In this document: in pieces, positions 3,259 to 52,703 of the stretch
Layout: every line of letters starts with the position of its first letter
Position numbering within the stretch: position 1 is the first letter of the stretch
Source of the DNA: Chiloscyllium plagiosum
Taxonomy: Eukaryota
DNA length: 64,000 nucleotides
Assembly (NCBI RefSeq): GCF_004010195.1
Contig: NC_057753.1
Span: 14,111,937-14,175,936 of the forward strand
Reading direction: 5' to 3'
Translations under genes and position numbers: made by a program
The notes under the pieces: model-generated
Told to the model about the DNA's origin: nothing
Databases searched by the model: none
The model's input: the letters and a program-made list of their open reading frames with translations, nothing else

Positions 3259-3297
3259 GGTTTTTGTACGGTCCTCACTGATCTTGGTTTCACTGTG
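3259..3297 (-). other. Recombination signal sequence, 23-bp spacer, consensus (V1)
   Basis: Minus strand: CACAGTG (3297-3291), 23 nt (3290-3268), ACAAAAACC (3267-3259), immediately after CAVE. Confidence 0.97.
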
Positions 3298-3804
3298 TCT
3301 CTACTGCGCAGAGATAGGTGCCAATGTCTGTCACTCGAACGTCATGAACATTCAGAGTGCTTCTCTTCTCCACTGAACTGAACTGAGCAGCAATCCTGTC
3401 CCGATTGCTGGTACCGCTCACCAGATGCTTCATGGTTCCGTCCGGGTATTGAATGTACCACTGTAGGATCTGCCCTGCTACTGTGGTGGTACAGGTCAAT
3501 ATTGCAGTGTTTCCCTCGATAACGATCACTAATTCTGATGACTGTGACACCTCGTTGCTACCTGCAACAGCTGAGAAGAATTGAAAGATAAACTGAAATA
3601 ACATACTTTAGGTATAACAGATTGTAATACAATGCAATAGAGTTCAAAATCAGATGATATAAAATCATGCAGCAGCAAAATCTGTCAAACACAACATATC
3701 ATCATATCACATGCATGTTTCCAACAGAATCAACAGTCACACTCACCAAAAGAGAATAGTAAAGAATTTATGGAGACGAGCAGAAAAGTTAAGCTCAGCT
3801 TCAT
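3298..3804 (-). CDS. TRAV/DV: T-cell receptor alpha/delta-type V gene segment V1, open (leader exon 3747-3804, V exon 3298-3570)
   Basis: Leader MKLSLTFLLVSINSLLFSF with G|GTGAGT donor; TTCTTCTCAG acceptor. V exon AVAGSNEVSQSSELVIVIEGNTAILTC-TTTVAGQILQ-WYIQYPDG...STLNVHDVRVTDIGTYLCAVE. Canonical Cys, Trp, DxGxYxC and a 23-RSS. Confidence 0.93.
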
Positions 3805-48237: not shown

Positions 48238-48679
48238 ATGAAGACAGCAGCAATCCAGTTACTCAGCATCTGAGTATTTCAAACAGGTAAATGAGGAGTT
48301 TTTAGACACCATGTTTTAAACTACCACTAGATTGACAGTTCAGAATCGAACTCTGTTTTGCCTTTCAGAACTGAGTCAGAGTGTTTCTGTCACTCAGTCA
48401 CCCTCGTCAATTGTTCAGGCAGAAGACGAGGCAGTGACTCTCAACTGTACCCATGATACTACATTTAGCAATTATGCATTACTCTGGTACGGACAGCACC
48501 AAAACACACAGCCTGAGTATAATCTGTGTAAAGATACAGGTGGTGATATAAGTTTAAATAAAGTTTTGCTGAAGATCGCTTCTCTGCAGAACTTGAGACC
48601 TCCAAGAAAGTCTCCAGTTTGACTATCACTGAGCTCGAGCTAATTGACTCTGCCGTGTATTACTGCACTTTATCAGACA
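48238..48679 (+). pseudogene. TRAV/DV: TCR alpha/delta-type V pseudogene V4 (leader 48238-48286, V exon 48369-48679)
   Basis: Leader MKTAAIQLLSI*VFQT has TGA at 48271-48273 and a G|GTAAAT donor. V exon SVSVTQSPSSIVQAEDEAVTLNCTHDTTFSNYALLWYGQH..., a frameshift near 48560, then FAEDRFSAELETSKKVSSLTITELELIDSAVYYCTLSD. Confidence 0.92.
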
Positions 48680-51637: not shown

Positions 51638-52703
51638 ATGCAGATGCTAGTCCTTGCTCTCATCTCAGTTAATCTCATGATCGGTAAGAGGGATATTTTA
51701 GACCTAAACTGTTGATTTTCAAGTGAAACAAAAGAGAGAGGATCAGGAGTACATATTGATCCAGCAGTGGGCCTGGATGAACCCGCACCCGTTAATGTGA
51801 GCCGTTTACAAGTCTTTGATATAAAAGAATAGAGGCAAAACACAATTCAAATACGAATAATAAATATGATACTAGAATTGAGGGATGCAAACTATCAAAG
51901 GAAAGATTGAGATTCTTAGCTGTGTCAAAGGGAACGCTGAGTTGACACTGAATATAAATATTGAAACTGATGAAGATGTTCAATGCTTTGAAATAGAGAA
52001 GGTGCTTCGACATTTTGATGACTCTAAAATTATCGATCATAAAAATAAGGCTCGGCCAGAAGGCAATACGAATTCAGAAAAAAAATCCTTCCGCTTTAGA
52101 GTATGGAACTCACTGCCGAAACGAAATGCTGAATCACATATATAGATACATAAAGAAAAATTTCGATACATGGTGGAGCCAATAAGAAAAAGTGGGATGT
52201 GTAAATTTAACAAACAGACATAGCGAAAGAGATTGTTCATGGGATATGTCAGCACCAACACAGAACAGAAAATGTTTCACGGTATTTTCTTCTCGAATAT
52301 TCATTTATTTTTATTATTAACAAAACGCATTTTTTGCATCAATACTACTGCTCAATTGAAAACTTTGTTGATTTTTTTTTCTTTCACACCATGTTCCAGA
52401 ACAGAGCAATGGAATTTTTGATACACAGCTTGAGTCCTCGCTCACACATCCCGAAGGAGAAGTTGCTACTTTAAGCTGTACCTACACTGGCGATGCTTAT
52501 TCTTTATTCTGATACCGTCAGTACCCAGGAGGACAGCCTGAGTTCGCCTTCCAGGGATACACGAGTGGCAGCAATTCATTTAAGGCAGATTTTGCTCGGT
52601 ACCGGTTTTATGACACAGTTCAGCAGTCAGGCAATATGTATCTATTGACCATTTCTGATCTACGTCTTTCAGACACCGTTGTTTATTATTGTGCAATGAG
52701 ACT
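51638..52703 (+). pseudogene. TRAV/DV: TCR alpha/delta-type V pseudogene V5 (leader 51638-51683, V exon 52400-52703)
   Basis: Leader MQMLVLALISVNLMI with G|GTAAGA donor; ATGTTCCAG acceptor. V exon EQSNGIFDTQLESSLTHPEGEVATLSCTYTGDAYSLF*YRQYPGGQPEFAFQGYTSGSNSFKADFARYRFYDTVQQSGNMYLLTISDLRLSDTVVYYCAMR. The invariant Trp is TGA (52510-52512). Absent from the ORF track. Confidence 0.92.

Follow-up and report, generated by a model that had tools for sequence, protein, structure and literature searches.

A conserved single-copy V segment of the shark TCR alpha/delta locus with a predicted two-residue CDR2, likely an ordinary short-class TRAV

A V segment in a 64,000-nucleotide stretch of Chiloscyllium plagiosum DNA (the window; C44:14,111,937-14,175,936), denoted as V1, is most likely an intact V of the short class of the shark TCR alpha/delta locus that lost three further residues at the CDR2 tip, and it is likely an ordinary TRAV; we give this reading a probability of about 0.78. 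V1 is a real, conserved, single-copy and probably functional shark TRAV, and no other mapped segment has so short a CDR2. The whole gene lies at window 3804-3298 on the minus strand with GT-AG splicing, and its features are as follows.

3747 to 3804, minus strand: leader exon of 58 nt, with the ATG at 3804 and a phase-1 GT donor at 3746; joined to the V exon in contigs of runs X7, X9 and X16
3562 to 3746, minus strand: leader intron, of 185 nt when the distal acceptor is used and of 176 nt with a second in-frame acceptor 9 nt upstream
3298 to 3561, minus strand: V exon, open frame, with a Pfam V-set match; 254 nt from the acceptor to the end of Cys104
3493-3491, 3460-3458 and 3310-3308, minus strand: conserved residues Cys23, Trp41 and Cys104, respectively
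3467 to 3481, minus strand: CDR1 of five residues, a normal length for the short V class, by hand numbering anchored on Cys23 and Trp41
3401 to 3433, minus strand: C' strand (residues 43-48), the two-residue turn that is CDR2 (3415-3410) and a short C'' (51-53), as predicted from AlphaFold and alignments
within 3401 to 3433, minus strand: site of the three-residue deletion of V1, from alignments
3259 to 3297, minus strand: perfect RSS with a 23-bp spacer, the heptamer starting at +14 from the first base of Cys104

V1 has the leader exon, phase-1 intron, exon with Cys23, Trp41 and Cys104, and 3' RSS with a 23-bp spacer that characterize a TRAV/TRDV segment, and it matched Pfam V-set with 35.3 bits against a cut-off of 26. 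An earlier note on this DNA had described the leader, splice sites and frame as intact, which agrees with the 58-nt leader, the GT donor, the AG acceptors and a frame open to 3298. Two in-frame AG acceptors place the exon start at 3570 or 3561. These alternative acceptors (window 3562-3571), 9 nt apart, were both used in public contigs, and the resulting leaders differ by three residues. The RSS, CACAGTG-23-ACAAAAACC at 3297-3259, has zero mismatches, an event expected by chance about 3e-5 times per window. While it is the sole zero-mismatch RSS among four RSS-like matches in the window, as the earlier note had pointed out, it is not special across the locus, where 11 of the 76 open V segments carry a perfect RSS, two of them at most 7 kb beyond the right end of the window. 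An RSS-like site with a 24-bp spacer at window 40948 on the minus strand has no V exon upstream and is probably a chance match or a relic.

We mapped contig C44 over 1.658 Mb (1.458 + 0.2 Mb; about 0.95 Mb of C44:12.15-14.76 Mb lies outside the scan), and a V segment was required to have both a D-x-x-x-Y-x-C motif and an RSS. On the plus strand, a D at C44:14,552,203 is followed by eight J segments, a C1-type exon at 14,569,372 and 97 further J segments. This arrangement is that of a TCR alpha/delta locus, and V1 lies inside it, about 440 kb upstream of the D, J and C1 elements and on the strand opposite to the 97-J array; most proximal V segments are on the minus strand as well. The C1-type exon gave Ig C1 matches and is TRDC by position only, and a simple scan of the mapped locus gave no match for TRAC.

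The count of 60 residues between the canonical cysteines of V1 versus 71 in V2 (55236-55018) and V3 (35436-35218), given in the earlier note, was reproduced. The spacing of V1 is 10 residues for Cys23-Trp41 and 49 for Trp41-Cys104, and that of V2 and V3 is 12+58. To read these numbers we took a length census of 76 open-frame V segments in the mapped locus, from which six with stops were excluded. The Cys-Cys length was 60 in one segment (V1, the shortest of the 76), 62 in two, 63 in 14, 64 in four and 68-72 in 55, giving a short class (60-64, 21/76) and a long class (68-72, 55/76). V2, V3 and the other window neighbours of V1 all belong to the long class. The number of residues between Trp41 and the beginning of the D strand, taken for 72 segments, was 20 in V1, 22-23 in the other 20 short-class segments and 26-30 in the long class, with the value 23 in 19 of the 72. 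The loss of two CDR1 residues and about nine CDR2 residues that had been claimed thus holds versus the long class, but versus the short class only three residues are missing; likewise, the five-residue CDR1 is shortened by two against the long class but is of normal short-class length. The phrase 'almost no CDR2/C'' region' is not borne out as worded, the deficit from the short-class baseline being three residues.

Several other V segments of the contig were recorded. In the window, a long-class V pseudogene at 48380-48666 (plus strand) has a frameshift and a degraded RSS and is 75% like the V at C44:14,217,675, and a second pseudogene, of the 10/59 family, at 52423-52698 (plus strand) has an in-frame stop just before the C-strand Tyr. 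At C44:13.40-13.53 Mb there is a tandem array whose unit is a short-class V (plus), a long-class V (plus) and often an inverted long-class V, and many of its short-class copies have a perfect RSS. At C44:2.53 and 2.42 Mb, some 10 Mb away from the main cluster of V segments, there are two short-class TCR-type V with a perfect 23-RSS. Four open 13/58 V at C44:14,256,473-14,351,747 sit on a long branch and, judged visually, are similar to nurse shark aV9 and to IgH-like V frameworks.

When V1 was searched against PDB sequences, the top matches were TCR alpha chains, in keeping with the TCR alpha-like character that the earlier note had read from its motifs. Each of the four alignments displayed (mouse-type alpha chains, e.g. 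226 and 5c.c7) had a single three-residue gap, and the S-G-T tip of V1 aligned with the same letters in the mouse alpha chains. The position of the gap is ambiguous: HMMER set it in C' in these alignments, and BLAST set it after the S-G-T tip in the alignment with P0014. Since V1 lacks three residues against the short class, P0014 (see below) and the mouse alpha chains alike, the V1-specific loss is three residues at the CDR2 tip and not 9-11. By the same count, ordinary V-alpha domains with solved classical MHC complexes are only three residues longer than V1. The IMGT-style numbering that had been proposed as a check was assigned by hand as in short mammalian TRAV and gave a CDR1 of five residues and a CDR2 of two. 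A two-residue CDR2 is unusual, as it lies below the 5-7 residues of nurse shark V-alpha (PMC5931798) and below the minimum of four residues in the human TRAV rows displayed from PMC7824213. Mammalian TRAV of the [5.5.3] type (mouse V-alpha11 in 5c.c7, 2B4 and 226; human TRAV22 and TRAV41) share with V1 the 10-residue Cys-Trp spacing, the short FR3 and the S-G-T loop tip, include its best PDB sequence matches and fall in the same broad tree group, but V1 is three residues shorter from Trp41 to the D strand and about 35-40% identical to them.

The best intact paralogues of V1 were 37-39% identical. In a DNA search with V1, the sole other match was 74 bases at 82%, which is a truncated relic with stops; this V1-like relic at C44:12,841,025 covers FR1-CDR1 only and is identical to V1 at 68% of the amino acids in a stretch of 28 residues. 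V1 is not alone in its low copy number, as the locus has other V families that are singletons or small. With the best intact paralogue at 38-39% identity, the proposal of the earlier note that V1 is a distinct V family stood up, and on these comparisons V1 is a single-gene family. For reference, families in the nurse shark were defined by at least 85% nucleotide identity in a set of nine TRAV families and 447 rows, of which the aV1 rows compared and the first two rows of each of the eight other families looked unlike V1 by eye (PMC5931798).

An exhaustive protein search identified P0007, which is 55% identical to V1 over 78 residues without gaps. In the reverse search of this genome, V1 was the best match of P0007 (E 1.4e-21), followed by a match at 1.1e-7. 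Because the gap is common to the orthologue P0007, which aligns gap-free with V1 at 55%, the deletion is old and not private; the search for relatives that the earlier note had suggested thus found the same deletion in P0007 and in organism C (see below). The closest named protein was P0014 (UniRef100_A0A4W3H7S8, Callorhinchus milii), 45% identical with one three-residue gap; its C-terminal end is as in V1 but, unlike V1, it has a full-length loop and a Cys-Cys length of 63. Further homologue searches with V1 at two length settings gave no match, which is weak evidence for so short a query. The suggested tree was built from 102 rows with few columns, leaving many forks open, and was rooted at its midpoint. 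V1 paired with P0007 (support 96/90) and fell in a group of 10/52-type V including rows of this shark and elephant shark and mammalian TRAV-like rows with moderate support (97/75 to 98/77), whereas the position of P0014 next to V1 was weakly fixed. The tree therefore places V1 with P0007 among short TRAV-like V, but it included no VNAR or NAR-TCR V rows. With its five-residue CDR1, its short FR3 and its grouping with 63-residue V domains, V1 fits the short (10/52-type) TRAV lineage.

The gene apparently has a counterpart in Chiloscyllium punctatum. In Supplementary Table 2 of PMC10322711, TRAV05 is a minus-strand gene of 494 nt with an intron at 59-240, an RSS at +14 and status F, which denotes a 'transcribed functional element'; the mapping used expressed TRA rearrangements that include a J and the constant region. 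From the table coordinates, the TRAV05 exon to Cys104 is 254 nt; the intron start at 59, the 254-nt exon and the RSS at +14 are all equal in V1, and both have a 58-nt leader exon and are single-member families (PMC10322711). A 254-nt exon occurs in one of the 45 table rows with a defined intron by our hand count, the next shortest being 272 nt (PMC10322711). The neighbours of V1 and TRAV05 match in order, strand and RSS offset: upstream of both, two 293-nt genes on the plus strand lie about 9 kb from each other; next come a minus-strand V about 30 kb on and a plus-strand pseudogene, and further along are a minus-strand 272-nt gene with an RSS at +13 and, directly preceding the first J, a 272-nt gene on the plus strand (PMC10322711). 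There are also mismatches, since TRAV06 lies between TRAV05 and TRAV07 and no counterpart of it was found in the window, the intron is 182 nt in TRAV05 versus 185 nt in V1, and the distance to the first J is 650 versus 438 kb (PMC10322711). The table gives coordinates and no sequences, and the apparent match of V1 to TRAV05 is one of exon geometry and gene order, not of sequence. The term 'CDR2' occurs nowhere in the main text of PMC10322711, where the short loop is unremarked, and short V1 motifs had no match in the paper supplements searched.

The earlier note had judged V1 probably expressed, and we found it transcribed and spliced in three public runs. Three of the four sequencing runs examined hold a V1 contig with the leader intron removed (X7, X9 and X16), although none of the matching runs is recorded as RNA; in the fourth, X24, there were no reads in the roughly 2% of the run sampled. 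The X9 and X16 contigs, from organism C, are about 97% alike to V1 without indels, skip 185 nt (distal acceptor) and end at 3305 and 3299, which is the V end. Such a stop is as expected if diverse junctions break the contig, which suggests rearrangement but is not proof. The X7 contig (window 3150-3926), the only full-length contig under the organism label of V1 itself, skips 176 nt (proximal acceptor), has no indels and reads through the RSS, and it is thus an unrearranged transcript. As to the rearranged reads that the earlier note had wanted, the contigs from X7, X9 and X16 gave spliced transcripts but no V1-J junction.

Considering these data, V1 would be joined by RAG to the J-alpha array, likely by inversion because V1 is inverted relative to the J segments. 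The C. punctatum table and the contigs ending at the V end suggest that a rearranged V1-J-alpha is spliced to C-alpha, and the domain would pair with a beta chain. Use with C-delta is possible too, since V families are shared between alpha and delta in the nurse shark (PMC5931798). The alpha-chain CDR2 touches the MHC helices (PMC5931798, PMC8559430). In V1, a two-residue turn between the kept C' and C'' would reach less far and make fewer contacts with the MHC helices, so that antigen recognition may lean more on CDR1 and CDR3. Contact with MHC need not be lost, because mouse chains that are MHC-restricted have the S-G-T tip too. The statement that V1 lacks the loop contacting MHC was overstated, as a predicted two-residue turn remains with the same S-G-T tip as in mouse alpha chains.

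The structure model that had been called for was computed with AlphaFold from a 67-sequence alignment consisting entirely of TCR-type V domains; the J-encoded G strand is absent from it. The mean pLDDT was 92.3, and that of the C'-turn-C'' block was 96. Strands were predicted at residues 32-37 (C), 43-48 (C'), 51-53 (C'') and 56-61 (D), with CDR2 as a two-residue turn. A 63-residue paralogue modelled likewise as a control (pLDDT 87.9) had C' but got no three-residue C'' call, and the C'' assignment of V1 is therefore soft. The top Foldseek rows were TCR structures with a TM of about 0.9, and the best fold matches were TCR V-alpha and V-delta, ahead of VNAR; a profile search of the PDB was dominated by multi-domain antibodies. 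In VIA, TCR chains came first (Z 13.1-13.4, rmsd 1.1-1.4, 85-87 aligned), and VNAR 8ht3 was at rank 41 (Z 11.3, rmsd 1.5, 82 aligned). The model predicts that V1 keeps a normal TCR fold, with C' and a soft C''.

These results bear on a VNAR-like origin, in which V1 would be a VNAR or NAR-TCR-like unpaired single domain that lost C' and C'' by descent or convergence. By the earlier note, the Cys-Cys length of VNAR is close to that of V1; both are short V domains of the Ig V fold, and VNAR does appear in the VIA list at the rmsd given above. VNAR has eight strands and is described as having neither CDR2 nor two of the beta strands (PMC4622739, PMC9514858), whereas V1 is predicted at high confidence to retain C' and a short, if soft, C''. 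Judged from the model, V1 does not have the loss of C', C'' and CDR2 that yields the HV2 belt of VNAR and NAR-TCR V. TCR chains scored about 2 Z higher in VIA, V1 is three residues from ordinary V-alpha, its leader is its own, and in the tree, which holds no VNAR or NAR-TCR V rows, it is nested within short TRAV. The scan of 1.66 Mb, which required the D-x-x-x-Y-x-C motif and an RSS, turned up no VNAR-type V. We rejected the VNAR-like convergence raised by the earlier note on the predicted C'/C'', the three-residue gap to ordinary V-alpha and the fold ranking, and regard this origin as very improbable. Equally hard to credit is an origin of the deletion in an assembly error or in private damage to a copy that is decaying. 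There is indeed a truncated V1-like relic with stops, and the sole full-length contig under the organism label of V1 is an unrearranged one, but X7, X9 and X16 have no indels, P0007 has the same gap, TRAV05 has the same 254-nt exon (PMC10322711), and the leader, splice sites and RSS are intact; on the gap-free contigs, P0007 and this exon the explanation was rejected.

Two further explanations concern what V1 is used for. Innate-like TCR alpha chains of the MAIT or iNKT type have a fixed V-J pairing, a restricted CDR3 and a non-classical MHC ligand. V1 could be a dedicated V-alpha of this kind, with its clipped CDR2 selected for a non-classical MHC-like or non-MHC ligand and with restricted J and CDR3, given its single intact copy, a deletion kept in the 55%-identical P0007 and in organism C, its perfect RSS and its place as the shortest of 76 V segments. 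The authors of the salmonid study consider it improbable that the CDR2-less TRAV3 docks on pMHC in the conventional way (PMC8559430). Against this, 78 of 118 J were found joined to salmon TRAV3-1, much as the ordinary TRAV19-5 had 79 (PMC8559430), the shark locus has other singleton or small V families, and V1 retains the S-G-T tip. We consider such a role unlikely, and it is just as doubtful that V1 is an old single-copy V-alpha whose two-residue CDR2, held by selection, defines a semi-invariant innate-like alpha-beta lineage with a non-classical MHC-like ligand. Less probable again is that V1 serves mainly as a V-delta in gamma-delta T cells, where no docking on MHC is needed and CDR2 would be free to shrink. 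The alpha/delta locus is shared and a 23-RSS suits D-delta too, bovine TRDV1 has a CDR2 of three residues or none (PMC2846910), and of the seven V-delta families in the nurse shark, five are present in alpha cDNAs as well (PMC5931798). However, the matching C. punctatum gene is marked as transcribed in the TRA repertoire (PMC10322711), and the best sequence matches of V1 are alpha chains.

An ordinary short-class TRAV with a clipped CDR2 tip has parallels elsewhere. All salmonid TRAV3 genes are reported to be without CDR2 and are expressed (PMC8559430), and some bovine and ovine TRDV1 genes are without CDR2 but in frame (PMC7824213, PMC2846910). Like V1, these are in-frame alpha/delta V with an absent or tiny CDR2; unlike V1, which keeps about two residues and is single-copy, they belong to multi-gene families in which CDR2 is wholly gone, by a nine-residue deletion in ruminants. 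The short CDR2 of V1 would be independent in origin from the salmonid and ruminant cases. No paper on a short-CDR2 shark TRAV was among those listed in the literature searches, and the family may already be described.

Taken together, V1 has no bearing on the origin of VNAR. Cartilaginous fish join salmonids and ruminants as lineages that keep an in-frame alpha/delta V with a minimal CDR2, and loss of the germline MHC-contact loop has likely been tolerated repeatedly. As V1 is single-copy, conserved and apparently part of a shark TCR-alpha repertoire already published, the J segments and CDR3 that it uses provide a test for innate-like alpha-beta T cells in sharks; a semi-invariant V1 lineage, if real, would be the first such lineage in cartilaginous fish.
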